Origin: Candidatus Latescibacterota bacterium
GTDB taxonomy: Bacteria; Latescibacterota; UBA2968
Length of the DNA: 64,000 nt
Assembly: GCA_965116885.1 (NCBI GenBank)
Contig: OZ220741.1
Span: 608,001 to 672,000 of the forward strand
Reading direction: 5' to 3'
Shown: in pieces, positions 12,002 to 48,179 of the stretch
Layout: the number at the start of each line of letters is the position of its first letter
Position numbering within the stretch: position 1 is the first letter of the stretch
Program-made: the position numbers and the translations under genes
The notes under the pieces: generated by a model
Told to the model about the DNA's origin: nothing
Seen by the model: only the letters and a program-made list of their open reading frames with translations
The model's database searches: none

Positions 12002-12208
12002 TCATGACACCCTCTTGGGCTTTTTCTTTTTATGGACGCAATCCTGGAGATACAGATTGATCAAACTCTGGTATGGAATACCTGTTTCGTCCGCCAAATC
12101 CTTAAAATACGCAATCACATCCGTCCCCAAACGAAGCGTGACCTGCTTTGTAAGATGTTTTGCATAGGGATTCTTGACGGATTTTGAGAAATCGTATTCT
12201 TTTCTCAT
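12002..12208 (-). CDS. BrnA/CopG-like RHH antitoxin
   Basis: MRKEYDFSKSVKNPYAK...VTLRLGTDVIAYFK...GIPYQSLINLYL. Confidence 0.85.
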   Translation of the reverse strand: MRKEYDFSKSVKNPYAKHLTKQVTLRLGTDVIAYFKDLADETGIPYQSLINLYLQDCVHKKKKPKRVS

Positions 12209-12292
12209 TACATATACCTCACACAGCCTCATACCAAAAATCCTGGCAATAAGCGAAAAACTCGCCTCCTTCGACGAGAGAATGGAAACTAT

Positions 12293-12337
12293 TTGACATT
12301 TTATCTTAAAGTGCACACATTATGTGTACACTTTAAG
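12293..12337 (+). promoter_or_regulatory. vapBC promoter with palindromic operator
   Basis: TTGACA at 12293; CTTAAAGTGCACACAT-T-ATGTGTACACTTTAAG 16-bp inverted repeat (1 mismatch) abutting the RBS. Confidence 0.65.
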
Positions 12338-12345
12338 GAGGAATT

Positions 12346-12591
12346 ATGAAAGCATCTATTCTCGACTTAAGACGACGCATGAAAGATGTCTTACTCGCAC
12401 TTGACCGCAACGAAACGGTCACCATTTTTTATCGCGGCAAAGAAAAAGCCATCCTCACTCCCAGCCAACAGCGAACAAACAAATCTGTAAAAGACCACGA
12501 AGCTTTTGGGATGTGGCGAGACAGAAAAGATATGACAGATGTCGATGCTTACGTCCGCAATTTGAGAAAAGGCCGCTTGAATGATTTTTGA
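12346..12591 (+). CDS. Phd/YefM-like antitoxin (VapB role)
   Basis: DLRRRMKDVLLALDRNETVTIFYRGKEKAIL...AFGMWRDR; overlaps the PIN toxin gene. Confidence 0.8.
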   Translation: MKASILDLRRRMKDVLLALDRNETVTIFYRGKEKAILTPSQQRTNKSVKDHEAFGMWRDRKDMTDVDAYVRNLRKGRLNDF

Positions 12592-12958
12592 TACCGATGT
12601 TATAATATGGGTTTTCAGAGGTCATGAAGAGGCTGCAAAACTCGTTGAAAGTATCGATGAGCGTCAGATATCAATTGTTACGTATATGGAATTTATCCAG
12701 GGAGCGAGAAATCGGCAGGAATTAAAAAAGATCAAAGATTTTCTCACTGACCACGCCTTTCAGACCCTACCTCTCACTGAAAATATCGGACATAGAGCAT
12801 CTGTATATATGGAAGAATATACCCTTAAGACAGCACTGTATATGGCAGATGCTTTAATTGCAGCAACAGCTATTGAACACCATTTAACCCTTTGTACAGC
12901 CAACAGAAAACACTACCACCAAATCAACGAACTCAATCTAAAAATCTTTCGTCCTTGA
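12581..12958 (+). CDS. vapC: VapC PIN-domain toxin
   Basis: IFDTDVII, TYMEFIQG, ADALIAATA, TANRKHY. Confidence 0.92.
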   Translation: MIFDTDVIIWVFRGHEEAAKLVESIDERQISIVTYMEFIQGARNRQELKKIKDFLTDHAFQTLPLTENIGHRASVYMEEYTLKTALYMADALIAATAIEHHLTLCTANRKHYHQINELNLKIFRP

Positions 12959-32139: not shown

Positions 32140-32233
32140 CAGGATGTGCAAGATTAAAGGATGAACAGGATAAAAGGCAAAAAAGCAACCACAGTCTGAA
32201 GCAGGATGTGCAAGATTAAAGGATGAACAGGAT
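32140..32233 (+). repeat. Duplicated CAGGATGTGCAAGATTAAAGGATGAACAGGAT element (related copy at 37892-37925)
   Basis: Two identical 32-bp copies at 32140 and 32202. Confidence 0.75.
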
Positions 32234-32406
32234 GAAAGGCAAATGCAACTACAGACAAGCAACCACAGATAAAAGGCACCCCTGCTGTAAAAATAAATAC
32301 GAGAGCAACAGCACTGGTGCAATTCGCATTGTGTTTACACAATTCAGTGGCTATTATAGGACGCGGTTGGGAAGTGTCAAGTATTTCGTTATCAGGAGTG
32401 TGTATT

Positions 32407-35399: not shown

Positions 35400-35494
35400 G
35401 CTTATACAACAAGTCTATGAGATGTTTCCAGCGCCTATAGGAATATCTAATTGAGGATAACGACTGATGTCCTCAACATAACATTAGAAAATTT

Positions 35495-35528
35495 TAAACC
35501 CCTGGAGAGATATGCTCTTCAGGGGTTT
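35495..35528 (+). terminator. Rho-independent terminator-like hairpin
   Basis: AAACCCCTGGAGAG-ATATG-CTCTTCAGGGGTTT. Confidence 0.55.
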
Positions 35529-35658
35529 CATTTGGATGGATTTGGGTTGCAATCTGAACGCGAACATCCCGTGCCAAAACGCGAGGACTATGTATGTGTG
35601 ATCAGATGGTATGCGCATCGCCTTTTTCCGCATTCAGGAAGTACGACTGTTGTACAGC

Positions 35659-35704
35659 ATAAAGGTCTATATATAAACCAATAAGATTATATATAGACCT
35701 TTAT
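35659..35704. promoter_or_regulatory. Perfect 18-bp inverted repeat upstream of the CARF regulator
   Basis: ATAAAGGTCTATATATAA-10 nt-TTATATATAGACCTTTAT. Confidence 0.55.
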
Positions 35705-35996
35705 TGTAGCTCTATAACATAGATTAGAGACGATCTAATTATTGTTGGACTATATATCGCCCAATTTTTTGAAAAATTGTTTGGTAATGTTTATGGTGAC
35801 ATATATATTGTGAACTCTCTCAAAAATAATTGATGATTTATACATACTCCTCCAAAATTTTGTGAATCATACATCAACCACTCAGACCTGTCCCATTAGA
35901 TGCTACGGAGTCTATTACAAACAGTCAGAGATTAAAATTTTAAAAATACTGTTTTAGACTACAAAATTCAATGAAATGACTCAAGAGGATAAAGAT

Positions 35997-37640
35997 ATGC
36001 AACACAAATTGGTCGCTGTAGTCGGCAACACACCACAAGTTATGACAGAAATCTTCTGGGCATTGCGTGTCCAGCACAAAGTGCCCATCGATGAAGTATT
36101 TTTGATAACGACAACAGAAGGACAAAAAACCTGCCAAGAACGCCTTTTGGATGAAGGTCGCTTTGACAAGATGTTGTCGGATTACAAGATCGATCCCAAT
36201 ACTGTCGCGTTCAAGCCCGATCATATCCATGTATTTGAAGATGCTGAAGGCAATTTTTTAGACGACATCCGCACCTCAGAAGATAATCGTCTGGCTCGGG
36301 ACCAACTTTTCCGATGGATTGAAAATTGGACGAAGAATGCCCATGTCGCTTTACACTGCTCGCTCGCAGGTGGACGTAAGTCAATGGGATACTTACTCGG
36401 AGCTGCTATCCAATTTTTTGGTCGGTCACAAGATCGCCTGTATCATGTGCTGGTCACGCCACAAGCAATTGAAACAAATCCCGATTTTTTCTTTCCACCC
36501 GTGCACGAAGCGCAAATCCCCACATCAGACGGACAAAAAATTTCTACTGCTGATGTACGTATTGAATTGGCTGAATTGCCTTATGTATCCGTAAGAGATA
36601 TATCCGCATTTGACGATGAAAACTATGACCTAATTCTACAGAAAACGCAAGCAGAAGTGAGACGTGTTCCACGTCTAAGAGCAGAAAACAAACGGCTGAG
36701 AGAAACATCGGGCAATGCTGGCGGCTTGATCGGAAATAGCTTTGCAATGCAAAAAACCAAAGACCGGATTCGACAAGTTGCTGGTGCAGATGATGCAACC
36801 GTGTTGATTTTGGGTGAAACGGGAACGGGTAAAGAGCGCGCAGTTGCAGCACTACATGAACAGAGTACGAGAAAAAATAAACCATTCATAGCAGTTAACT
36901 GCGGTGCATTTCCAGGTGAACTTTTGGATGTAGAGCTATTCGGTGCGGTTCCAGGTGCTTATACCGGACAAGCCGGACCGCGTGAGGGTGCTTTTCGCGC
37001 AGCTAATGGCGGGACCCTTTATCTTGATGAAATCGGAGAATTATCACATGAAGGGCAGGCGAAGCTGTTGCGCGTATTACAAGAAAAGAAAGTGCGCCCG
37101 GTTGGCAGTGATAAACAAGAGGAAGATGTTGATGTACGCATTGTTGCGGCGACCAATCGCGACTTGAAGGCCAGAGTTCAAGAAAAAGCTTTCCGAGAAG
37201 ACCTGCTGTACCGCCTCAATGTTTGGACCATTGAAATGCCACCGTTGCGAGAACGACGCGAAGATATACCGGAGTTAATCGACCTGTTTTGTGAACAATT
37301 TAATGAAAAATACAAACGCAATGTTGTGGGCTTTGATGCCCCAGCCATAGAAGCTATGTGTCGCTACACCTGGCCGGGCAATGTGCGCGAGCTTGAACAT
37401 GAAGTTGAGCGCATCGTCATTGCTGCCCCACAGAGTGCATTTCGCGTACATAAGGAAGACATAGCCAGGCATATTATTGAATCATCAGATTTAGACACGG
37501 GTAGTGGGACACTCAAAGAGCAAGTGGCGCAGTTTAAGAAGCAGAAGATTCAGGAAATACTGGCGCAAACTCAGGGCAGTGTTAAACGCGCCGCGAATAT
37601 ATTGGGTATTAATGAATCAACGGTGAGCCGAAATCGGTAA
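35997..37640 (+). CDS. NE0113-family CARF domain fused to sigma-54 enhancer-binding AAA+ domain and Fis-type HTH
   Basis: N-terminus: VVGNTPQVMTEIFWAL, LITT, LDDIRT, LHCSLAGGRKSM, FGRSQDRLYHVLV, FFFP. AAA+: GETGTGKE, VNCGAF, ELFGAVPGAYTGQ, LYLDEIGE, QAKLLRVLQE, AATNRDL, FREDLLYRLN, WPGNVRELE. HTH: GSVKRAANILGINESTV. Confidence 0.92.
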   Translation: MQHKLVAVVGNTPQVMTEIFWALRVQHKVPIDEVFLITTTEGQKTCQERLLDEGRFDKMLSDYKIDPNTVAFKPDHIHVFEDAEGNFLDDIRTSEDNRLARDQLFRWIENWTKNAHVALHCSLAGGRKSMGYLLGAAIQFFGRSQDRLYHVLVTPQAIETNPDFFFPPVHEAQIPTSDGQKISTADVRIELAELPYVSVRDISAFDDENYDLILQKTQAEVRRVPRLRAENKRLRETSGNAGGLIGNSFAMQKTKDRIRQVAGADDATVLILGETGTGKERAVAALHEQSTRKNKPFIAVNCGAFPGELLDVELFGAVPGAYTGQAGPREGAFRAANGGTLYLDEIGELSHEGQAKLLRVLQEKKVRPVGSDKQEEDVDVRIVAATNRDLKARVQEKAFREDLLYRLNVWTIEMPPLRERREDIPELIDLFCEQFNEKYKRNVVGFDAPAIEAMCRYTWPGNVRELEHEVERIVIAAPQSAFRVHKEDIARHIIESSDLDTGSGTLKEQVAQFKKQKIQEILAQTQGSVKRAANILGINESTVSRNR

Positions 37641-37726: not shown

Positions 37727-37761
37727 GTGCATTTTTGCCTATCGCACAGGCAAAAATGCCT
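37727..37761. promoter_or_regulatory. Candidate upstream activator sequence 1 (two 14-bp palindromic boxes)
   Basis: GTGCATTTTTGCCT-7 nt-AGGCAAAAATGCCT. Confidence 0.7.
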
Positions 37762-37858
37762 GTTTGAACATCTCATCGTTCATTTCCTGTTTCAAAAAAA
37801 TATCACACAACCTGTTGTTTTTTTTGATCTCTGAGGAAATTCGGAGATTTTTTTGTGT

Positions 37859-37875
37859 TTGGCACGCGATTTGCA
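37859..37875 (+). promoter_or_regulatory. Sigma-54 (-24/-12) promoter upstream of cas6
   Basis: TTGGCACGCGATTTGCA, GG-N10-GC, matching the YTGGCACG-N4-TTGCW consensus. Confidence 0.9.
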
Positions 37876-38053
37876 AATAGAAACTGTCAGAATCAGGATG
37901 GGCAGGATGCAAGGATGATCAGGATACCCCCGACCCCACCCAGGGGGTTAGATACCGCAACACATCCGTCGAGATGACCGGAAGATCCCATTTAGTCATG
38001 CATTTGGGCCTATAGATGGGCGCAGAGATTATCCACTATTCAAGGAGATATTG

Positions 38054-39013
38054 ATGTTTGACCTGAAACTCGCGTATATGCGCCTCCATTTCAAAGCGCG
38101 GGGCCATCTGCGCCTGCCTCCTTATAAAGGCTCCACATTTCGCGGGGCTTTTGGCGTGTCATTTAAGCGCGCGGTCTGTATTGTGCAACACGGCGAATGC
38201 GAGCGGTGTCTGATTCGGGCGCAATGCGTGTATCCATACGTATTTGACACACCAGTAGATAATGCACAGGGCATATTTCGAGGGTATCAAGAGGCACCGC
38301 ATCCCTATCTGATCGAACCCCCACTGGAAACAAAAACCGATTACGCGCCAGGCGACGAATTTGCCATTGGTCTGACCTTGATAGGCCGCGCACTGAATTA
38401 TATGCCCTACTTCATCTATACATTCCAGCGAATGGGAGACACAGGTCTTGGACGCGGACGCGGCAAATGCGATCTCATATCGGGCGAAGCACTACACCCG
38501 GATGGGACGTGGCAGAAGGTTTACGACGGAGCGAGCGAAATGTTGCAACAAGACGTACCCCATTTGACCGCACAGGATCTGATGCACAACGATATAGGAT
38601 CTCGGATTCGCCTCTCATTTGTAACACCTACCCAACTCAAAGCAGACCAAATATTGCAGCGCGGATTGGATTTCCCCGTACTCGTACGCGGGTTATTGCG
38701 GCGGTATTCGGCACTGGCCGCATTTCACGCAGACGGACCGCCAGATATAAATTATGCCGACTATATCTCGGCGGCAGAGAATATTCAAACCACATCCCAC
38801 AATTTGACCTGGCGCACCTGGGAGCGGTATTCAAACCGCAAGAACCGACGCATGAGCGTGAGCGGTTTTACAGGAGATGTGGTCTTTGAAGGCGACATGA
38901 CACAATTTCACCCCCTGCTGGCCCTGGGCGTGCCGATACACGTTGGCAAGTTGACCAGCTTTGGGATGGGGCAATACGCTATAAAAGGAAGAAGGGTGAA
39001 GGGTGAAGGGTGA
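38054..39013 (+). CDS. cas6: CRISPR precursor RNA processing endoribonuclease Cas6
   Basis: LPPYKGSTFRGAFG, C-x5-CxxC-x5-C, APHPY, FVTPT, RYSNR, Gly-rich loop HVGKLTSFGMGQY. Confidence 0.92.
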   Translation: MFDLKLAYMRLHFKARGHLRLPPYKGSTFRGAFGVSFKRAVCIVQHGECERCLIRAQCVYPYVFDTPVDNAQGIFRGYQEAPHPYLIEPPLETKTDYAPGDEFAIGLTLIGRALNYMPYFIYTFQRMGDTGLGRGRGKCDLISGEALHPDGTWQKVYDGASEMLQQDVPHLTAQDLMHNDIGSRIRLSFVTPTQLKADQILQRGLDFPVLVRGLLRRYSALAAFHADGPPDINYADYISAAENIQTTSHNLTWRTWERYSNRKNRRMSVSGFTGDVVFEGDMTQFHPLLALGVPIHVGKLTSFGMGQYAIKGRRVKGEG

Positions 39014-39060
39014 AGGCAATAGCATGACCTGTTTTATTCCCAGCAGAAATTGTCAAACAA

Positions 39061-39095
39061 GTGCAAAATTGCACAGAGAACGTGCAGAAATGTAC
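39061..39095. promoter_or_regulatory. Candidate upstream activator sequence 2
   Basis: GTGCAAAATTGCAC-7 nt-GTGCAGAAATGTAC. Confidence 0.7.
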
Positions 39096-39192
39096 GCTTG
39101 AACATGTTGGTGTCAATTTGATTTCAGAAAAAATATCGTATAACATATTGTTTTCTCATAAATTAAAAAATAAATTCAAATTTTCCTCCATT

Positions 39193-39209
39193 TTGGCACG
39201 CGGATTGCA
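39193..39209 (+). promoter_or_regulatory. Sigma-54 (-24/-12) promoter upstream of the DUF1232-cmr operon
   Basis: TTGGCACGCGGATTGCA, GG-N10-GC. Confidence 0.9.
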
Positions 39210-39271
39210 TAAACAAGAGGTGCTCGCAAAAAAGTTTTTAATCCGCAGTAAAAACCAAATGGAGGAATACC

Positions 39272-39622
39272 ATGAAGAATCGAAACAATCAAGGGTATAG
39301 GAAATATTATTCTCAGGACAGCTTCTGGAAAAAGTTGCTCAAATTCGCACGTACCGCGGGCCGGGAAGTCGTTGAGCATGCCCTATCACTCTACTACACC
39401 GCGCAAGCTCCCGACACACCTGCCTGGGCCAAAACGGTCATCACCGGGGCACTGGGGTACTTTATTCTTCCAGCCGATGCAATTCCCGACCTGATCCCGG
39501 CCGTCGGTTACGGCGATGACCTGGGTGCGCTGGCCGCAGCACTCGCAGCCGTGGCGGCTCATGTCACGCCTGAAATCAAAGCCCGCGCGAAAGAAAAAGC
39601 CGCTGAGTGGTTTGGTGAGTGA
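39272..39622 (+). CDS. YkvA/DUF1232 family small membrane protein
   Basis: TPAWAKTVITGALGYFILPADAIPDLIPAVGYGDDL. Confidence 0.9.
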   Translation: MKNRNNQGYRKYYSQDSFWKKLLKFARTAGREVVEHALSLYYTAQAPDTPAWAKTVITGALGYFILPADAIPDLIPAVGYGDDLGALAAALAAVAAHVTPEIKARAKEKAAEWFGE

Positions 39623-39882: not shown

Positions 39883-40722
39883 ATGAATAGGACAGTGTTG
39901 AATCTTGAAACTGTAACACCAATGTTTTTACATGGTGAGAATAGTCGAAATCTCGAACTTCGACCACCGCCGTTCAAATCACTGATGCGTTATTGGTGGC
40001 GAACTGTGCAGGATTGCGAATGGAAATCGCTTCAGAAGGACGAAGCAAAATTATTTGGTAGCACAGATCGTAAAGCACCATTCTCAATTCGTATTTTAGG
40101 AGAAACGGAACTGGACCGTAGGCGCTATAAACCGTTGCCACATCGAACTGATAATCGTGGTTTTCAGACAGATGCGTATAAAGAGGGACAGTCATTTGAC
40201 CTGTATCTGATTACAAAAAACGGATCAAATACTTCGACTTATGAACAGATTGCAAAACTCGGCTTTTTGCTCGGCGGCGTTGGGAATCGATCACGACGTG
40301 GATTCGGTTCGATTCGTGAAACAAACTGGAATTTCACAGACGTTTCTGATCTACGGCAGGAAGTTTTGAATACTCTAAACGCTGTCGCAGGCACTAATCA
40401 TTTTCAGATGATGGGCCAGATCATTGAATCTAAACTCACTCGTTTTCCAGATTATCCTGTTATTATGTCTATCTATTTTGGCAATCCAACGCCCCAGATT
40501 GACACCCTATTAAGGAAAATCGGACAGGCGACTCATACTCATAAAGATGATGCTTTGGGTTATGCAAAAGGAAGACAACGGCTGGCTTCACCTATTCATG
40601 TTCGTATCCAGAAGATGGGATGGAAATATATTCCAATTGTGACCCAACTTTACTTTCCGAAATTCAAACCAGAGAATTTTGAACAAAAGCAAAAGGATTT
40701 TATTGACGCCATCATCACTTAG
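39883..40722 (+). CDS. cmr1: Type III-B RAMP protein Cmr1
   Basis: LETVTPMFLHG, ELRPPPFKSLMRYWWR, LFGS, LGGVGNRSRRGFGS, RLASP. Confidence 0.92.
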   Translation: MNRTVLNLETVTPMFLHGENSRNLELRPPPFKSLMRYWWRTVQDCEWKSLQKDEAKLFGSTDRKAPFSIRILGETELDRRRYKPLPHRTDNRGFQTDAYKEGQSFDLYLITKNGSNTSTYEQIAKLGFLLGGVGNRSRRGFGSIRETNWNFTDVSDLRQEVLNTLNAVAGTNHFQMMGQIIESKLTRFPDYPVIMSIYFGNPTPQIDTLLRKIGQATHTHKDDALGYAKGRQRLASPIHVRIQKMGWKYIPIVTQLYFPKFKPENFEQKQKDFIDAIIT

Positions 40723-40732
40723 GAGGCTTTCT

Positions 40733-42619
40733 ATGAGTGGCAACCGGACGAAACGTCTCATGCTCATGTTTACAATTGGTCCTGTGCAATCGTTTATTGA
40801 AGCAGCTCGGAAGACAGAGGACTTGTGGATGGGGAGTTATATTCTGTCTTATCTTATCGCTAAAGCAATGGACAAAGTTCGTGGCGACGATATTGAGCTG
40901 ATATATCCCGCTATTGGAAACCAATCGCCATTTGAATTTTGGAAACAACAAGATTTCGCAACCCCATCTTTTCCAAATCTTTTTTTAGCAATTGGCAACG
41001 GTATTGAGGTTTCTCAGAATGCATTGATTGAACTCGCAAAAGATGCTGAACGTACTATAAAAACCGAATTTGAGCGAATGGCGGAATGTGTGATTGATAA
41101 GGCATTCAGCAACAAGTGGCGTGGTACTTATGTAGAGGAAGTGTTCAAGCGACAAATCTCGGATTTTTTTGATGTCTATTGGGTGATTACCCAAGAAGCA
41201 GAGCAAAATTACGGGGATTGGTACGATCACACCGCAAGCAATCTCGCAGCTATCAAAAATTGCCGAACATTCGCACAGATCCGTGAGTTTGGACGGAAGT
41301 GTTCACTTGATGGAACACGCGAAATTCTCCATTTGAGACAAGACGAAACTGTGCGAGAAGCAATGAAATGGTGGCAGGGCTTTGCTGAACGCGAACCGAA
41401 GTATTGCCGCAGGGAAGAGGCTCTGTGTGCCGTTTCATTAACCAAACGGATGGGAAGGCATTTTCTGGAGACCCAATCGGAATTTTCAGATCATTTTTCT
41501 ATTCAATCTCTGAACTTTCCATCTACATCGGAGATAGCTACAGCGGACTTCAAAGAACAATTCCAACTCAATATTGGGGCCTTAGGCATTTATGGAGATT
41601 TCGTTAAAGAAGTCAAAAAGTTGAGGACATTGGACAACAAACCAGCAGATATTCCAATTATTCAACCGTTACCAAAAATCGGGATGCTCCAGGGGAATAT
41701 TGATGGCGAGTGGCTGTACGAAGAGACTTGGAACGAGTCCTATCTAAGGCGTTACTACAACATTGATGCAAAAAACCAGAATAAACAGATTCAGACTTGT
41801 AAGAGATTGCACCATAAACTTGTCCAATGTCTTGGTGAACCGGGGCGATATTATGCTGCCATTGCACTTGATGGCGATAACATGGGCGAGAAGATTCGGG
41901 AAGCTAAATGCAAGGAAGACCATGAAAAACGCAGCAATGATCTGATTCAATATACGAAAGATGCTCGTCGGATTACTGAACAAGAGCATCTCGGAAAACT
42001 GACCTATGCGGGTGGTGACGACATCCTTGCACTCGCAAACCTCAAAGACCTCTTACCTATACTGAAAGGCTTGCGCGAAACATTTCCCAATTTCACGACT
42101 GCTTCGGTAGGTGTATGTATTGCCCACAATAAAGTTCCACTGGGAGAGGTGCTTCAGCAAGCGCGTCAAATGGAGAAAGTAGCGAAAAATGAAGGTGAAC
42201 GGAATGCTCTTGGAATCACGCTGTTTAAGCACTCCGGAAATATCAGCCAGACAGTAACAAAGTGGACGCCCGGCGATTTGGATGTGCTCAATATTAGTGA
42301 GGAGTTACTCAAATTATTGAGCGATAATGAAATTTCTAAGCGTTTTTTGTACGCTTTCCGTGAGACATTTGCCAAATTAATTGAAGACGAAGATGATTTC
42401 GGGGAACTGGGCCGTCACCTTATTCAAGCTGAGTTTGAACGGATTATGGAACGGGCACATTCGAACAAAAAAACAGAACTCAAAGAAAGTCAACAAACCA
42501 TCCATACACTTACTCAACTCATCTATCATATCCAGCCTTTCTCTCACTTTCTCGGATATTTAGAAATTATCAATTTCATTGCGAGGATAAAAAATGAAAC
42601 TGTTTCTCCAACCCAATGA
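40733..42619 (+). CDS. cas10: Cas10/Cmr2 without HD domain, with intact GGDD cyclase motif
   Basis: Begins directly at FTIGPVQSFIEAARKTEDLWMGSYILS; YYAAIALDGDNMG; YAGGDDILA; TASVGVCIAH. Confidence 0.95.
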   Translation: MSGNRTKRLMLMFTIGPVQSFIEAARKTEDLWMGSYILSYLIAKAMDKVRGDDIELIYPAIGNQSPFEFWKQQDFATPSFPNLFLAIGNGIEVSQNALIELAKDAERTIKTEFERMAECVIDKAFSNKWRGTYVEEVFKRQISDFFDVYWVITQEAEQNYGDWYDHTASNLAAIKNCRTFAQIREFGRKCSLDGTREILHLRQDETVREAMKWWQGFAEREPKYCRREEALCAVSLTKRMGRHFLETQSEFSDHFSIQSLNFPSTSEIATADFKEQFQLNIGALGIYGDFVKEVKKLRTLDNKPADIPIIQPLPKIGMLQGNIDGEWLYEETWNESYLRRYYNIDAKNQNKQIQTCKRLHHKLVQCLGEPGRYYAAIALDGDNMGEKIREAKCKEDHEKRSNDLIQYTKDARRITEQEHLGKLTYAGGDDILALANLKDLLPILKGLRETFPNFTTASVGVCIAHNKVPLGEVLQQARQMEKVAKNEGERNALGITLFKHSGNISQTVTKWTPGDLDVLNISEELLKLLSDNEISKRFLYAFRETFAKLIEDEDDFGELGRHLIQAEFERIMERAHSNKKTELKESQQTIHTLTQLIYHIQPFSHFLGYLEIINFIARIKNETVSPTQ

Positions 42620-43763
42620 TACCTTCTTTTTTCGCGACGGGCGTCCTTTTACAAAAGGCGAACAGTCTGAAGGTCATTCAATTTTTCCACCCCTTCCCTC
42701 GACAGTTCTCGGTGCGTTGCGTACTGCATACATCGCTGAATTTGGTGATCTATCGCTTTTCTATTCCGGCGGGATGCGAGAGACGATTGGTACGCCAGAA
42801 TCACTGGACAATGCTATTCAAGTGCGCGGTGTTTTTCTTGCAAATAGGCGAAGCAATCAGATGGGTCGAATGGAAATATTTTTTCCAGTGCCACTTGATC
42901 TGGTATATAAAAAAATAGAAAAGAGAGATGATCATACCCTGCTTCATTTACTGACGCCGCAATCTAAAAATTTTGCGTCGAACGGGATAATCAGCACGCC
43001 TCTTACATGGCTAAATTCCGAGTCCATTGATTTCGATGCAGATGGATTGTTACGACTGGGGGCAATCACACGATACTTACAAGGAAACAGTCAGAACCTG
43101 CTTCTTACAAACCGAGCAACATTGGTTGAGCGCGAAACCAAAACGGGTATCGCGCGGGATAGACACACTTTGTCGTCCGAAGAACACATGTTGTATCGTA
43201 TTGATATGTCGAGATTTAAAAATAGAGATGGCAATTACGGCTTTGTGGTAGAATATGAATGCCCTATGAATTTGCCACAAAAAGGACTTTTGAAATTAGG
43301 TGGAGAAGGCAAAGGTTTTGTCTATCAGCACAGCAACTATGATATTGATCCACTGTCCAGCCGTCTTGAGGCAGTCAAACGAGCCATCCAATCAACAAAC
43401 AGATTCAAGCTATATTTTGCAACGCCGACCATATTCCGGAACGGATGGTTACCTTCATGGTTGAATAGCGATACGCTTTCGGGTGAATACCCACTGGAGA
43501 ATACAGCACCAATTTCACTCAAATTAATCACCGCCGCGGTTGGTAAACCTGTTCCTGTTGGCGGATGGGACATGGCAAAAGGTGAGGCAAAACCCAACTA
43601 TCGCGCAGTGCCTGCTGGCAGCGTCTATTACTTTGAATTGATGGATAAAAATCGAATTGATGATTTAATCGCCGCTTTTCACTACCAAAACATTAGCGAG
43701 GAGCGTTCTGAGGAGGGATTTGGACTTACTCTTATCGGTGTCGCACAGGAGGGAAATGCATGA
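42594..43763 (+). CDS. cmr3: Cmr3
   Basis: PNDTFFFRDGRPF, FPPLPSTVLGALRT, LGGEGK, VGGWD, AVPAGSVYYFE, EGFG. Confidence 0.93.
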   Translation: MKLFLQPNDTFFFRDGRPFTKGEQSEGHSIFPPLPSTVLGALRTAYIAEFGDLSLFYSGGMRETIGTPESLDNAIQVRGVFLANRRSNQMGRMEIFFPVPLDLVYKKIEKRDDHTLLHLLTPQSKNFASNGIISTPLTWLNSESIDFDADGLLRLGAITRYLQGNSQNLLLTNRATLVERETKTGIARDRHTLSSEEHMLYRIDMSRFKNRDGNYGFVVEYECPMNLPQKGLLKLGGEGKGFVYQHSNYDIDPLSSRLEAVKRAIQSTNRFKLYFATPTIFRNGWLPSWLNSDTLSGEYPLENTAPISLKLITAAVGKPVPVGGWDMAKGEAKPNYRAVPAGSVYYFELMDKNRIDDLIAAFHYQNISEERSEEGFGLTLIGVAQEGNA

Positions 43764-45010
43764 AGACGCTTATAACACCAGTCGGCACATCGCTCTTTAC
43801 AAACTATCTTGATGAGAATGGGGACAGTGCCTTTAGACACAATTATGAAACAATCAGAAGATCTCCCGCTTCGGAATGGGATGAGTATGATTATGAAATT
43901 GAGGATCTAAAAACGTCCAGTCTTGAATTTATTAAAAAAGAAAAGGAATCCGCGTCTGCGGAACTTCAGAGTATCGCTAAAATTCAAGAAAAATTCAAAG
44001 AGGACCTCGAAGTTCGTCTATTTGCCTCAGACACGATTGCTTCGCGATTGGCTGCGAAGATTTTAGCGGATGATAAAGTGGCTTCAGTTTTAGGCGATAA
44101 TATCTCTGTCACATTCGATACACAAACAGATGTGATCAAGGGGCTTCAGGTTGAAGATCCCAAAGTCTTTTCGCAGGAAGGCCTGTCCAACTTGATTCAA
44201 AAGATCAATTCGGCCAGCAATAATGCCGGGGGCTATCAGGAACTTGCTATCAATATCACCGGAGGGTTCAAAGCCACCTTGCCATATCTGACGATTTTGG
44301 CACAACTCAATCGTGTTCCACTTTACTACACATTTGAAGATACTGAAGCACTCATCTCGATTCCACAAGCACCGTTAGTTATTGATTGGGGTTTGATTGA
44401 ACGCTATTCCGACGTTCTCAGAAAAATTGATGAGGGAATAGGAAATTGGTCGGCATTCAGAAACCAACATTACCAGGCTGTTCAAGATTTGGAGGCATTC
44501 ATTGAAGTTGTTGACGAAATGGCATTTCTTTCCCCTATTGGCCAAATTTTCTGGAATCACTATCAAAGATACTTTATCGTCGAATTGCCAAGAGGAAGTT
44601 ATTTCAAATATGACTTCAGAGAACGCGGCTTGATTGATCAATCCATTGAAGAGCTTTATAGACGGTTAGACACCGTTCTAAGACCAGATCTTCTCGATCT
44701 GGTGAAGTGCTATAAACGCATTCGCGATTTGGGACATAATGATGACTTAAATCATACTGGACAAATCCCAAATCCTACGAGAAGTCCGAATCGAGAAATG
44801 TTCATTTTCAAATCGACAAATGAAGAGCAGATACGGTTGCTATACACCTTTAAGGTGAATGAACGAGAGATCACTCGGCTTACAATATTTGATCTTCTTT
44901 GTCGAGATTTTAACCACAGTACTTATTTTGATACATGGAAACGCAAATTTGGTCGTCAAAATTTTCCTGATATTGACTTTGTCACACGCACATTTGAAAT
45001 TCCTTCATAG
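43760..45010 (+). CDS. APE2256-family CARF effector with a possible C-terminal RelE-like domain (Cami1-like)
   Basis: LITPVGTSL, SAELQS, ASDT, INITGGFKA, LYYTFE, LSPIGQIF, then a ~130-aa tail with IRLLYTF and a terminal H..Y. Confidence 0.75.
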   Translation: MKTLITPVGTSLFTNYLDENGDSAFRHNYETIRRSPASEWDEYDYEIEDLKTSSLEFIKKEKESASAELQSIAKIQEKFKEDLEVRLFASDTIASRLAAKILADDKVASVLGDNISVTFDTQTDVIKGLQVEDPKVFSQEGLSNLIQKINSASNNAGGYQELAINITGGFKATLPYLTILAQLNRVPLYYTFEDTEALISIPQAPLVIDWGLIERYSDVLRKIDEGIGNWSAFRNQHYQAVQDLEAFIEVVDEMAFLSPIGQIFWNHYQRYFIVELPRGSYFKYDFRERGLIDQSIEELYRRLDTVLRPDLLDLVKCYKRIRDLGHNDDLNHTGQIPNPTRSPNREMFIFKSTNEEQIRLLYTFKVNEREITRLTIFDLLCRDFNHSTYFDTWKRKFGRQNFPDIDFVTRTFEIPS

Positions 45011-45032
45011 GTTTTAACAAGGAGAAACCAAA

Positions 45033-45995
45033 ATGTTCAAACAAGCTAAACCCCTCTTTCTTATCGTCGAAACCCCACTCCACGCTGGTAGCGGTAATGA
45101 CTTGGGCATTGTTGATCTCCCGATCCAGCGGGAAAAGCATACGGATTATCCAAAAATCGAAGCATCTGGACTAAAGGGCAGCATACGTGAAATTTTTGAT
45201 GCTCAAGGAAATAAATCTGAAATCGATCTTGTATTCGGCCCCGAACAAGGCGACTTACACGCTGGTGCTTTGGGATTTACGGATGCACGTCTCTTGCTTT
45301 TCCCAGTCAAGTCGGTCAAAAACGTGTTTGCCTGGGTAACCTGTCCCGCAGTTTTAGAGCGTTTCAAACATGACCTTGCCATCTGTCAGCCGAATATTGA
45401 GTTTATTGATGATCTCCCCGATAGTGAGGCGGTGACGACAGAGAGCGAACTAATTATTAAGGATAATAAAATCGTGCTGGAAGAATACACATTCGCGGTT
45501 AGCCAAAACAAAGAATGTGATGCTATTGCAGATTGGATTATCGAAAACGTTCTGCCAAAGGATCCGGGCTACAATTATTGGCGCGATAAGATGAAACGAG
45601 ATATGGTCGTGTTGACCGATGATGATTTCCGTGATTTCGTAACGCTTTCGACAGAAGTCATTGCCCGCACCAAAATCGACAGTGAAACCGGTACCGTTGC
45701 AAAAGGTGCGCTGTGGTACGAGGAATACTTGCCGACTGACTCTATTCTCTATTCGCTTGCCTTGACCACACCCATCTTTAAGGAAAATGACGCCGATAAA
45801 GGTATTTTCCAATTGACCGATCAGGATAAAGAAGAGAAACGCGATGAGTCGGAAAAGGTAATGGACTTCTTTGTGGATGGATTGCCGAATGTCATTCAGA
45901 TCGGCGGCAATGCAACCGTGGGCAAGGGTATAGTTCGTACACACGTTTATCAAAATGGAGGAGAAAACCATGCCACAAACTCCGACAATGCGTAA
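45033..45995 (+). CDS. cmr4: Cmr4
   Basis: TPLHAGSG, IVDLPIQRE (catalytic Asp), FTDARLLLFPVKS, GALWYEEYLP, QIGGNATVGKG. Confidence 0.96.
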   Translation: MFKQAKPLFLIVETPLHAGSGNDLGIVDLPIQREKHTDYPKIEASGLKGSIREIFDAQGNKSEIDLVFGPEQGDLHAGALGFTDARLLLFPVKSVKNVFAWVTCPAVLERFKHDLAICQPNIEFIDDLPDSEAVTTESELIIKDNKIVLEEYTFAVSQNKECDAIADWIIENVLPKDPGYNYWRDKMKRDMVVLTDDDFRDFVTLSTEVIARTKIDSETGTVAKGALWYEEYLPTDSILYSLALTTPIFKENDADKGIFQLTDQDKEEKRDESEKVMDFFVDGLPNVIQIGGNATVGKGIVRTHVYQNGGENHATNSDNA

Positions 45996-46368
45996 GGGAA
46001 TTGAACAAGGGCGTGCCAAGTACGCTTTTGAGGCAGTGAGCAGTGTTAATGGTGACAGATTGAAGAAAGAGTATAAATCCGCGGCAAAGAAACTCCCCGT
46101 CTTAATAAAAACGAATGGACTTGGGCAGTCTTTGGCATTCATTAAGAAAAGGAATAACGGGCACGACAGGCTATACGAACAAGTTGGAAACTGGCTCCAA
46201 GCCGTAGATACCAAACAGTTGGTTTCGACTGGCGAACTTGTGGAACAAGTCATCGAACTCAAATCACCCGACTATCGGCAAGTTACTGTCGAAACGCTCG
46301 CACTACTCAATTGGATTCGCCGATTTGTCGATGGACTCATGGATGATGTGGAGGAGAATGATGCTTAA
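45970..46368 (+). CDS. cmr5: Cmr5 small subunit
   Basis: EQGRAKYA, YKSAAKKLPVLIKTNGLGQSLAF, WIRRF. Confidence 0.94.
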   Translation: MPQTPTMRKGIEQGRAKYAFEAVSSVNGDRLKKEYKSAAKKLPVLIKTNGLGQSLAFIKKRNNGHDRLYEQVGNWLQAVDTKQLVSTGELVEQVIELKSPDYRQVTVETLALLNWIRRFVDGLMDDVEENDA

Positions 46369-47443
46369 TTTCCATCCATTGGATACGAGGGAACTGGTTC
46401 GCTCAAATAATCAGATTGATAATTTCGCGTTGCGTTACCGACATTCCTTGCAGGTTACTCGCGATGGTGAGAAATACAAATTTCAACTTTCCGATCCGAC
46501 GTTTAGTAAATCTTATGATGAATTGATTGAGCAGTTGCGAGAACGTCAAACAGAGCAATTTCTCCAATTTGTTATGCAGGATATCAGGCTTTACTGCGTT
46601 GATGCAACAGTTGATTGGCGACTAATTGTTGGCCTCGGCAGTGAGCATGTTCAAGAGACAAACATGACACTTCATCATATCTACGGCATTCCGTACATTC
46701 CCGGAAGTGCCGTGAAAGGCGTGTTGCGGCATTGGTGGGTGCAAGAGGATTTCGACAACAACGAAGACAAAGCACTGAAAGATAAAAATTTTCTCGCTCT
46801 CTTTGGAAGTCAAAAACGGCGCGGAGAAGTGCAATTTCTTGACGCCTATCCTGAGCAAGTCCATTTTGCGAAAGATATTATGAATCCACACTATCCCGAA
46901 TATTACAGTGGTAGCGCACCACCAACAGATTCTCAAAATCCAAGACCTATCAATTTTTTAACTGTTGAGAAGACCGCCTTTCGGTTCGCTTTCTTAGCGA
47001 AGAAGCAGAAACTTCTCGATAAACTCAAGGCACGATTTGAAGATGTATTAGAGCTGAAGGGCATCGGTGCGAAAACAGCGGTTGGCTATGGGTATTTCCG
47101 AAATTTTGAAGATCAGACCGACAAAATTATTGACACATTCAAGCGTCAACAACAAGCTGAACGGGAAGAAGCGGAAAGACAGCAAGAAGCCGAGAGATTG
47201 GCAAGTCTTTCTCCTGTCGAACAAATTGTCGAAGAATTGAATGGTCTCGCTGACAATTCTGTGGATGAAGCGCGTGTTACCGATATCTACAACATAGAAC
47301 TCCTATCTCTTGAAGGAGATGATCAACAGATGGTCGCACAGGCATTGAAAGCTTATTGGGAACGTATCAATAAGTGGAGTGGCGGTTCGAGGAAACAGAG
47401 AACAAAGGTGCAAAAGGTTAAGTCAATTTTGGGAGAGAGTTGA
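46358..47443 (+). CDS. cmr6: Cmr6
   Basis: WRLIVGLG, LHHIYGIPYIPGSAVKG, FLDAYP, DIMNPHY, PINFLTV, GIGAKTAVGYG. Confidence 0.95.
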   Translation: MMLNFHPLDTRELVRSNNQIDNFALRYRHSLQVTRDGEKYKFQLSDPTFSKSYDELIEQLRERQTEQFLQFVMQDIRLYCVDATVDWRLIVGLGSEHVQETNMTLHHIYGIPYIPGSAVKGVLRHWWVQEDFDNNEDKALKDKNFLALFGSQKRRGEVQFLDAYPEQVHFAKDIMNPHYPEYYSGSAPPTDSQNPRPINFLTVEKTAFRFAFLAKKQKLLDKLKARFEDVLELKGIGAKTAVGYGYFRNFEDQTDKIIDTFKRQQQAEREEAERQQEAERLASLSPVEQIVEELNGLADNSVDEARVTDIYNIELLSLEGDDQQMVAQALKAYWERINKWSGGSRKQRTKVQKVKSILGES

Positions 47444-47449
47444 CTATAG

Positions 47450-48179
47450 TAATCTGGCAAAAATCTTTGGTGAACGGGTGGGTGAAACAGGAGCAGACTT
47501 TTGTGCGATCAACGCCACAGGTGGCTATAAAGCCCAGATCGCCATTGCCGTTCTGATGGGCCAGGCACTCGACATTCCAGTGTATTACAAACATGAACGC
47601 TTTGATGCCATTATCCCGTTTCCACCTATGCCAGTGGCACTCGATTTTTCAATCTGGCAGCGGGCCAGTGGCATGTTTATGGTACTCGGCAAAGGCGACA
47701 TTATTCCGTGGGAGCAGTATCGTGAGGATTGGGATGAACGATTTGAGCCACTGGTCAATCGCGAGGAAATTGATGGCGAGGACTATCTGGAACTCTCGGC
47801 GACGGGACAGATCTTTCACGAGACCTTCCGAACCCGTTTTCAGCAGATAAAGGCCCACAGTCTTCCGCGACCAGCAACAGATAATGAGAAGTAAGCCCCC
47901 AATCTGGGCAATCACGGATACGGACAAGCTCAGACTCCCATTTTGCGGTTCCTGCAAAAGCTTACTGATGAGGTCCCTTACATCCGCTTTTGCCACTCAA
48001 CGTATTGGAACCCGGACCTGCCTGAATCAACCCGGTTTCGGTCATCGGGCGGAGAAGTCCAGGGCATATACTCCAATGGAACCTGGTGCGTGAAGTTTAA
48101 GGTGCATACAACATCAGATGATCAGGAGGTATTACCCGGCATTGTGGCCGATCTCAACGACTGGATAGAGAAAGGTTAA
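47450..48179 (+). pseudogene. 5'-truncated, nonsense-interrupted second APE2256-type CARF gene
   Basis: AINATGGYKAQIAIAVLMGQALDIPVYYKHERF...LSATGQIF; no start codon or N-terminal half; in-frame TAA at 47892-47894, with the frame continuing to 48179. Confidence 0.8.

Follow-up and report, generated by a model that had tools for sequence, protein, structure and literature searches.

RtcR, the regulator of rtcBA, is reported to join a CARF domain to a sigma-54 AAA+ module and a helix-turn-helix (HTH) domain, with its gene adjoining the sigma-54 promoter that it controls, and RtcR-like proteins have been predicted to control CoCoNuTs and restriction-modification systems. In the Sulfolobales, the CARF-winged HTH transcription factors Csa3a and Csa3b are described beside cas genes and are thought to be responsive to cyclic tetra-adenylate (cA4); Csa3b is reported to regulate Cmr-mediated interference, and, according to a 2022 review, no CARF effector other than a nuclease has been characterised apart from Csa3. 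That cas genes can be targets of an enhancer-binding protein has a precedent in Nla28 of Myxococcus xanthus, the sigma-54 promoters of which are reported to include those of CRISPR-associated genes. Nucleases, among other effectors, are known to be switched on by cyclic-oligoadenylate signalling in type III CRISPR-Cas. In the CalpL-CalpT-CalpS system, a cA4-activated protease frees an ECF sigma factor, and type III cyclic-oligoadenylate signalling is thereby linked to transcription. Here, a 64,000-nt stretch of Candidatus Latescibacterota DNA (GCA_965116885.1; contig OZ220741.1, positions 608,001-672,000; hereafter the window) was analysed, in which a gene for a CARF-AAA+-HTH activator lies upstream of cas6 and a type III-B cmr operon. 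Two -24/-12 elements, P1 ahead of cas6 and P2 ahead of the cmr genes, are very probably sigma-54 promoters served by this adjacent activator through paired upstream boxes, as judged by sequence comparison.

Results

Two predicted sigma-54 promoters with a common layout

The first-pass annotation of this DNA had placed -24/-12 elements at 37859 and 39193. Both are present there, reading TTGGCACGCGATTTGCA from 37859 (P1) and TTGGCACGCGGATTGCA from 39193 (P2); each contains a perfect TGGCAC-N5-TTGCA and conforms to the extended form TTGGCACG-N4-TTGCA. They are the sole exact matches to TGGCAC-N5-TTGCW on either strand of the window. Chance expectation was estimated from dinucleotide shuffles (n = 100), which gave a mean of 0.12 matches, and none of the 100 contained two. 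When one mismatch was tolerated, one more match was obtained, on the minus strand and within a CRISPR spacer. In P1 and P2, the distance from the GG to the GC doublet is exactly one helical turn, the spacing by which sigma-54 promoters are recognised. Both elements are intergenic and lie on the same strand as the next gene, 180 bp from the ATG of cas6 and 63 bp from the ATG of a gene for a small DUF1232 protein, respectively. No sigma-70-like match was found on the plus strand of either intergenic region, and no Rfam family (riboswitch, leader or small RNA) was matched anywhere in the window.

Each element is preceded by two 14-bp boxes that are separated by 7 bp and repeat with a 21-bp period, the first box beginning 134 bp ahead of the first G of the GG in P1 and P2 alike; the coordinates and spacing originally annotated were thus borne out at both promoters. 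The paired pattern GCA-N4-TGY-N11-GCA-N4-TGY occurs in the window at the P1 and P2 sites only (0.02 expected; none of 100 shuffles reached three). The 17 promoters described below define a family consensus box, the palindromic GTGCA-N4-TGCAC, the centre of which is A/T-rich. The P2 boxes carry zero and one mismatch to this consensus, and the exact form is found once in the window, in P2, against 0.055 expected. The two P1 boxes together form a perfect 12-bp inverted repeat. A chance origin of the motifs was considered and ruled out by the shuffles for the -24/-12 elements, the box pairs and the exact boxes.

The P1 and P2 regions align almost without gaps. Their alignment revealed an additional element, TTGAACAT, that was missing from the first-pass annotation and could be a third degenerate half-site (TGCA-N4-TGCA-N4-TGAA). 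Further downstream, the A-tract block that had been described as AAAAAATATC followed by AAC and TTGTTTT was located in both promoters. Here, the IHF consensus WATCAANNNNTTR is matched with one mismatch on the minus strand (AAACAACAGGTTG, 37808-37820, in P1 and AAACAATATGTTA, 39141-39153, in P2), although 62 such matches occur in the window against 54 expected; both follow the A-run, at an equal offset in P1 and P2. The sequence between the motifs is poorly conserved, as had been claimed, with 9 of 20 and 11 of 33 spacer positions identical between the two promoters.

The adjacent activator combines a CARF5 sensor with a sigma-54 AAA+ module

The CARF activator claimed to adjoin P1 was recovered in the Pfam search, in which the product of the gene directly upstream matched PF09623 (Cas_NE0113), PF00158 (Sigma54_activat), PF25601 (AAA_lid_14) and PF02954 (HTH_8). 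The database form of the protein has 547 residues. Its NE0113/CARF5 sensor spans approximately residues 1-205, and the PADLOC model CARF5--CARF was matched at residues 8-209 (E = 2.3e-72); PADLOC CARF model names are taken here to follow the 2020 CARF classification. The cutoffs of the CARF5 branch were exceeded by both PF09623 (129 bits versus 23) and TIGR02584 (cas_NE0113; 174.1 bits versus 80.65). A profile built from 22 CARF domains weakly matched those of Cad1, a CARF-adenosine deaminase (E = 4e-4), and of the ring nuclease Sso2081 (E = 1e-3), a remote similarity that would be compatible with a cyclic-oligoadenylate sensor. The match to PF00158 covered the whole profile (E = 1.1e-62), the Walker A and B motifs are represented by GETGTGKE and LDEIGEL, and the closest relatives of the AAA+ domain in the PDB are FleQ, NtrC and ZraR. 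The HTH_8 domain lies at residues 518-552, and candidate palindromic sites lie upstream, 105-135 bp before the -24.

Assignment of the protein to the RtcR family was rejected. NF038308 scored 306.6 bits against a cutoff of 650 and over residues 229-523 only, and the PADLOC model RtcR_PspF2 was matched over residues 234-552 only; there is, moreover, no adjacent rtcB or rtcA, with cas6, DUF1232 and cmr1-6 being found downstream instead. A Csa3-type CARF factor was likewise rejected, since in this protein the CARF domain and a Fis-type HTH are separated by the AAA+ sigma-54 module. The window yielded no second activator gene. Autoregulation was also discounted: neither a box nor a sigma-54-like element lies upstream of the activator gene, where two weak sigma-70-like matches are not above chance.

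The promoter motifs accompany the CARF-AAA+ fusion

Approximately 100 clusters of fusion relatives with both PF09623 and PF00158 were present in the protein collection. Species-representative genomes were scanned with an alignment of 16 fusion relatives, which yielded 49 loci (L001-L049); the scan patterns were derived from the CARF domain, and divergent fusions may have escaped. A CARF domain followed by AAA+ was found in L001-L012 only, all from Candidatus Latescibacterota and amounting to ∼235 kb, of which L007 ends inside the gene and has no downstream score. The 34 loci L013-L046 carry a CARF domain without an adjoining AAA+ module (in L031 a separate AAA+ gene lies ∼9 kb away), and L047-L049 gave no match in the domain search. 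Among the 49 loci, no CARF-AAA+ fusion was found outside Latescibacterota.

In all 11 scorable fusion loci, a -24/-12 element lies 170-361 bp past the activator stop codon on the strand of the gene; seven of these first elements are exact and four read TTGCG. A second element follows 1351-1711 bp past the stop in L003, L008, L011 and L012, as it does in the window. Exact TGGCAC-N5-TTGCW matches numbered 14, in 10 of the 49 loci: 12 are P1 or P2, one is a CRISPR spacer of L002 and one lies in L041. Among the loci lacking the fusion, 1 of 37 has an exact match. All 17 exact copies of GTGCA-N4-TGCAC in L001-L012 fall inside P1 or P2 enhancers. Among the loci compared, the motifs are tied exclusively to the activator gene.

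The P1 and P2 regions of the window and of the scorable fusion loci gave a set of 17 promoters, and the DNA searched amounted overall to 698,842 bases. In 15 of the 17, the proximal box lies 112-114 bp, TTGAACAT 96-98 bp and the CAA-N4-TTG core of the A-tract block 52-54 bp before the GG. Sixteen of the 17 have a recognisable TTGAACAT, the exception being P2 of L012, in which it was undetected. The three elements all lie 9-10 bp nearer the GG in L005 and L010, where the alignment shows a 10-bp gap between the bend block and the -24; because this gap corresponds to one helical turn, they stay on the same face of the DNA. The second box lies 19-21 bp upstream of the first or, in other promoters, a distal pair at about -203/-184 or -262/-241 gives three boxes, a number that would suit three dimers forming a hexamer. 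When an nhmmer profile of the 17 promoters was run over all of the DNA, only those 17 and the distal box pairs of the same regions were returned. Further members of the regulon were therefore not found in the 698,842 bases by this profile, the exact L002 element being the CRISPR spacer.

Conservation of the promoter core and modularity of the activator

Four-fold degenerate sites of cas6 served as the yardstick for selection, with a binomial test. Identity in the promoter core, from the proximal box to the -12, was 0.81-0.90, compared with 0.66-0.82 at the four-fold sites, and the excess reached p < 0.05 in six of seven P1 and three of four P2 comparisons. The earlier proposal that the motifs are under selection is thus upheld in most comparisons. 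Directly past the -12, identity drops to 4-7 of 15 positions, and the conserved footprint therefore ends where a sigma-54 promoter should end. Between loci, the Cas6 proteins are 88-93% identical, including those loci whose activators share only 47-49% identity, from which it follows that a cas6-promoter cassette has moved or recombined.

The AAA+ modules fall into group A (the window and L001-L006) and group B (L008-L012). The loop predicted to contact sigma-54 reads GAYTGQ, GAYSGQ or GTYTGQ in group A and GAFTGA, NAFTGA, NAFTNA, GAFTDA or GAFTNA in group B; its aromatic-Thr core is kept in all relatives except L003, which has Tyr-Ser. Between the groups, the AAA+ modules are 40-43% identical, the CARF domains 62-68% and the linkers 16-21%, which suggests that two distinct AAA+ modules were combined with the CARF5 sensor or that modules were swapped. 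L001 (group A) and L011 (group B) have HTH regions with 81% identity and a common three-box arrangement. One HTH type and the -262/-241/-104 arrangement are likewise common to L005 (A) and L010 (B), with 54% overall identity in the region, and L004 and L006 share an HTH type together with boxes of the form CTGCA-N4-TGCAG. The HTH type thus tracks the enhancer arrangement and not the AAA+ subgroup, in agreement with a cognate HTH-site pair.

Operons behind the cassette

Type III genes that include Cas10 lie directly behind the cassette in 10 of the 11 scorable loci and in the window. The genes in question differ in kind: cas6 and then III-B in the window and L003, cas6-III-A in L002, DUF1232-III-A-cas1-cas2 in L006, III-D-like sets in L008, L009 and L011, and, in L004, L010 and L012, a set comprising a multi-Cas7 protein fused to a cold-shock domain (CSD), a CARF-nuclease, a small Cas10 and a Cas7-Cas5 fusion. 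These CSD-Cas7 sets (L004, 12346-19479; L010, 13088-20866; L012, 13968-19252) are a III-D-like variant, with multi-Cas7 proteins of 845-875 residues and Cas10 proteins of 531-547 residues. A large RAMP protein was noted in the sets of L004 and L010; PADLOC was run on L004 alone among the three, and there this protein is the Cas7-Cas5 fusion and a CARF4-PD-(D/E)xK protein is present. In L005 (9033-21620), cas6 lies upstream of the activator gene and the promoter precedes genes for an FGE-sulfatase, an ankyrin protein, a second FGE-sulfatase, a Ser/Thr kinase, a DUF4407 protein and an FHA protein.

The DUF1232 gene comes first behind P2 or P1 in the window and in L003, L006, L008, L010, L011 and L012, and directly after cas6 in L009. 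Present in 8 of 12 loci including the window, and across type III subtypes, it looks like a conserved partner of the cassette. The DUF1232 protein gave no PADLOC or NCBIfam match. The CRISPR repeat of the III-A locus L002 (16150-16638) is the reverse complement of the 37-nt repeat of the window, and different type III subtypes behind the cassette therefore share one repeat/Cas6 family.

Other features of the locus

The features of the window are collected in Table 1, together with the DUF1232 genes of the related loci. The window Cas10 carries GGDD at residue 445, and an HD domain was looked for in it and not found. The CARF-RelE protein is likely a cyclic-oligoadenylate-activated RelE-type RNase, which would be placed under the control of P2. 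Beyond the operon, open reading frames at 47379-47894 and 47943-48179 match positions 120-255 and 280-352 of the 353-position model CARF7--CARF_DUF2103; they appear to be a second CARF effector gene that is split and has a truncated start.

The P1 hairpin, situated between the A-tract block and the -24, is kept in 10 P1 regions, with one pair showing changes on both sides, and it probably ends the activator transcript just ahead of the -24. From DUF1232 to cmr1 and from cmr6 to the array, no plus-strand promoter-like or terminator-like site was found. The CRISPR leader contains neither a sigma-54-like nor a sigma-70-like match, and for this reason read-through may account for transcription of the array. 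A search for a third promoter, covering the leader and the gap between DUF1232 and cmr1, found none.

The 3' end of cas6 carries 3.7 copies of the heptamer GAAGGGT that extend across the stop codon (38991-39016), with similar purine-rich repeats at the same place in L003 and L011. An A/T-rich stretch of ∼550 bp (35440-35990), including a long palindrome at about 35660-35705, lies between a sulfatase gene and the activator gene and could be the boundary of the CRISPR-Cas island. The remaining genes of the window are sulfatases and ordinary metabolic genes. At some distance from the locus, an open reading frame for a CopG/BrnA-like antitoxin (12002-12316, minus strand) lies near one for a PIN-domain protein (12581-12958, plus strand), apparently as toxin-antitoxin pairs, and a 17-bp unit forms two short tandem arrays (32141-32177 and 32203-32239, 62 bp apart) between divergent FGGY kinase and DMFA2_C-like genes.

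Table 1. Features of the window and coordinates of DUF1232 genes in related loci
Feature	Positions	Strand	Basis or remark
Activator gene, CARF sensor + sigma-54 AAA+ + HTH_8	35997..37640 (alternative start 35976)	+	Pfam, NCBIfam, PADLOC
P1 enhancer, boxes 37727-37740 and 37748-37761, 7 bp apart	37727..37761	.	variants of GTGCA-N4-TGCAC
TTGAACAT in P1	37764..37771	+	97 bp before GG; P1/P2 alignment
P1 A-tract block, A7..ATATC..CAACCTGTTG..T8, candidate bend site	37794..37825	.	sequence, alignment
P1 hairpin, 10-pair stem then T-run	37826..37856	+	-11.2 kcal/mol, z = -3.08
P1 -24/-12 element, TGGCACGCGATTTGCA	37860..37875	+	pattern match; predicted transcription start near 37886
cas6	38055..39013	+	PF10040; ATG at 38055 after AAGGAG
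P2 enhancer, boxes GTGCAAAATTGCAC (39061-39074) and GTGCAGAAATGTAC (39082-39095), 7 bp apart	39061..39095	.	box pattern
TTGAACAT in P2	39098..39105	+	97 bp before GG; P1/P2 alignment
P2 A-tract block, A6..ATATC..TAACATATTGTTTT	39128..39154	.	then phased A/T tracts up to -24
P2 -24/-12 element, TGGCACGCGGATTGCA	39194..39209	+	pattern match; predicted transcription start near 39220
DUF1232 small protein, first gene behind P2 and head of cmr genes	39272..39622	+	PF06803
Type III-B operon: cmr1, cas10/cmr2, cmr3, CARF-RelE, cmr4, cmr5, cmr6	39883..47443	+	domain matches
CARF7--CARF_RelE protein, 416 aa, between cmr3 and cmr4	43760-45010	+	PADLOC
CRISPR array, 37-nt repeat ending ATTGAAAC	48461..~50800	+	28 exact copies of repeat 3' half
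DUF1232, L003	13071-13421
DUF1232, L006	11819-12256
DUF1232, L008	13033-13482
DUF1232, L009	12844-13284
DUF1232, L010	12013-12363
DUF1232, L011	13440-13790
DUF1232, L012	13287-13739

Discussion

The arrangement described above can be accommodated by the following model. Dimers of the CARF5-AAA+-HTH_8 activator would bind the GTGCA-N4-TGCAC boxes ∼105-135 bp upstream of the -24 and form an active ring. The A/T-rich CAA-N4-TTR block, ∼50 bp upstream of the -24, would bend the DNA through an IHF/HU-like protein or through its own A-tracts and so bring the ring to the closed sigma-54 complex, which ATP hydrolysis would open. The input would most likely be cyclic oligoadenylate made by the Cas10 of the locus once the Cmr complex meets target RNA; on binding of the messenger to the CARF5 domain, the AAA+ module would be released or assembled. 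Positive feedback would be the outcome, with higher levels of Cas6, of the Cmr complex, of the CARF-RelE effector and perhaps of the CRISPR transcript, and basal expression may stem from read-through past a weak P1 terminator. Such a cyclic-oligoadenylate feedback loop at this locus is, on the basis of gene content and domain matches, close to an even proposition. The explanation as a whole, in which the assignment of promoters and activator is blended with the feedback loop, is considered probable. A broader reading is put forward tentatively, at slightly less than even weight: the type III system would be self-inducing, with Cas10 oligoadenylate causing the CARF5 activator to fire both promoters, and the HTH-enhancer-promoter unit would be a portable cassette that has been recombined onto two AAA+ modules and placed before at least four kinds of type III operon and one non-CRISPR operon.

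Several observations weigh against this explanation. The predicted sigma-54 contact loop of the window activator is GAYTGQ and not GAFTGA; it differs by F to Y, an exchange reported to be tolerated in PspF, and also in its final Q. Neither an rpoN gene nor an IHF or HU gene is encoded in the window, and the host belongs to an uncultured Latescibacterota lineage. The P1 boxes are poor copies of the consensus, with two mismatches in the first and four in the second, and IHF matches with one mismatch arise about once per kb. The excess of conservation in the core is not significant for P1 of L009 (p = 0.13) or P2 of L012 (p = 0.086), and, since cas6 and P1 are close in all loci, recent common ancestry accounts for part of the conservation. 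Because the enhancer lies next to the HTH coding region, the correspondence between HTH type and enhancer could be mere physical linkage. In L005, the cassette faces non-CRISPR genes, with no Cas10 within 10 kb, and it may have been co-opted for a non-CRISPR system. Strict positive feedback, finally, requires basal expression, for which read-through at P1 is a candidate source only.

The part of the model most exposed to an alternative is the A-tract block. There is a sizeable chance that it is not an IHF site and that it bends by itself through phased A/T tracts or binds HU or a second regulator; intrinsic bending is an equally good reading of this sequence. A7, T8 and T7 runs are present in P1, and in P2 A3-A6 tracts recur from the block to the -24. 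IHF specificity is defined in Proteobacteria, and no IHF gene was seen in the window; the frequency of imperfect matches noted above tells in the same direction. Curvature alone, by contrast, would not call for so specific a sequence: the CAA-N4-TTR core follows the A-tract at an invariant position in all 17 promoters, and columns A93, A95, A96, C97, T101, T102 and G103 of the A3 alignment (numbered by its first sequence) are invariant. The nature of the ligand is less exposed. The promoters and enhancer could work as described while the CARF5 domain senses RNA ends with 2',3'-cyclic phosphates (a ligand that has been proposed for RtcR), another nucleotide or a protein partner, or mainly degrades the messenger, which we regard as unlikely. 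The CARF domain is of the CARF5/NE0113 type and not the RtcR type, the RtcR models matching the AAA-HTH part only, its nearest solved relatives are cyclic-oligoadenylate-binding CARF domains, and the cassette nearly always stands directly ahead of type III genes with Cas10. Such an alternative would draw on the L005 cassette without Cas10, on the NCBIfam label of TIGR02584 as a "ring nuclease" family, and on the CARF-RelE effector of the operon, which would itself make cleaved RNA ends; RtcR, the only studied CARF activator of such a type, is also reported to respond to tRNA fragments and RtcAB binding.

Binding of the boxes by an NtrC-like protein encoded elsewhere, with the adjacent CARF activator working at other sites, is very improbable. 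NtrC-type proteins also use TGCA-containing palindromes, a point raised in the first-pass annotation, but the boxes accompany the activator gene in all 11 loci, whatever operon follows. Exact boxes are found nowhere else in L001-L012, the promoter profile gave no other copy, and the HTH type tracks the box arrangement, with no second activator gene in the window. It is more doubtful still that the promoters resemble each other only through the recent spread of a cas6-promoter cassette without a regulatory role, with transcription coming from other promoters. The disparity between cas6 and activator identities shows that the cassette moved or recombined, and some pairs exceed the four-fold sites only moderately. 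P1 and P2, however, share the functional motifs only, their spacers differ, and identity collapses after the -12; the helical phase survived the 10-bp deletion in L005 and L010, the distant promoters of L004, L006, L005 and L010 keep every motif, and the intergenic regions hold no plus-strand sigma-70-like alternative.

If the proposed control by the CARF5 activator is correct, the immune system would be governed by an infection-triggered, ATP-driven and tight off/on transcriptional switch with positive feedback. The box consensus, the fixed offsets, the natural variants with two or three boxes and the variant that has lost one helical turn make the idea testable in vitro or in a surrogate host. 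The locus would also offer a ready-made ligand-inducible promoter system, and the motif could be used to find further targets in genomes.

In the literature, no report was found of a type III locus in which an NE0113/CARF5 activator is combined with sigma-54 promoters, although the 2020 CARF classification, which lay outside the comparison, may list the architecture. A review of CRISPR regulation names RpoN in its reference list only, neither sigma-54 nor DUF1232 is mentioned in a survey of the accessory genes of type III systems, and no paper on sigma-54 in Latescibacteria was found. CalpL-CalpT-CalpS acts by anti-sigma proteolysis, whereas here the CARF domain is fused to a sigma-54 activator. 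Nla28 is a response-regulator-type starvation regulator that is not known to have a CARF sensor or to be encoded in the cas locus. Csa3 lacks an AAA+ module, works with the archaeal basal machinery and belongs mainly to type I-A loci, whereas sigma-54 and ATP hydrolysis would apply here. Enhancer-IHF-(-24/-12) promoters of the NtrC/NifA type, such as glnAp2 and nifH, share with P1 and P2 the paired palindromes more than 100 bp upstream, a bend site between (a candidate one in P1 and P2) and the perfect TGGCAC-N5-TTGCA, and in the present family phasing is kept across a 10-bp deletion. The box GTGCA-N4-TGCAC differs from the NtrC site in having its half-sites in the opposite order, and the promoters described here further differ in the extra TTGAACAT and, at P1, in a terminator-like hairpin between the candidate bend site and the -24. 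Compared with RtcR, the CARF domain is of the NE0113/CARF5 type, the targets are type III CRISPR-Cas genes and not rtcBA, and the likely ligand would be cyclic oligoadenylate rather than tRNA fragments. The locus would be a case of RtcR and NtrC logic equipped with a different CARF sensor and wired to type III CRISPR-Cas.

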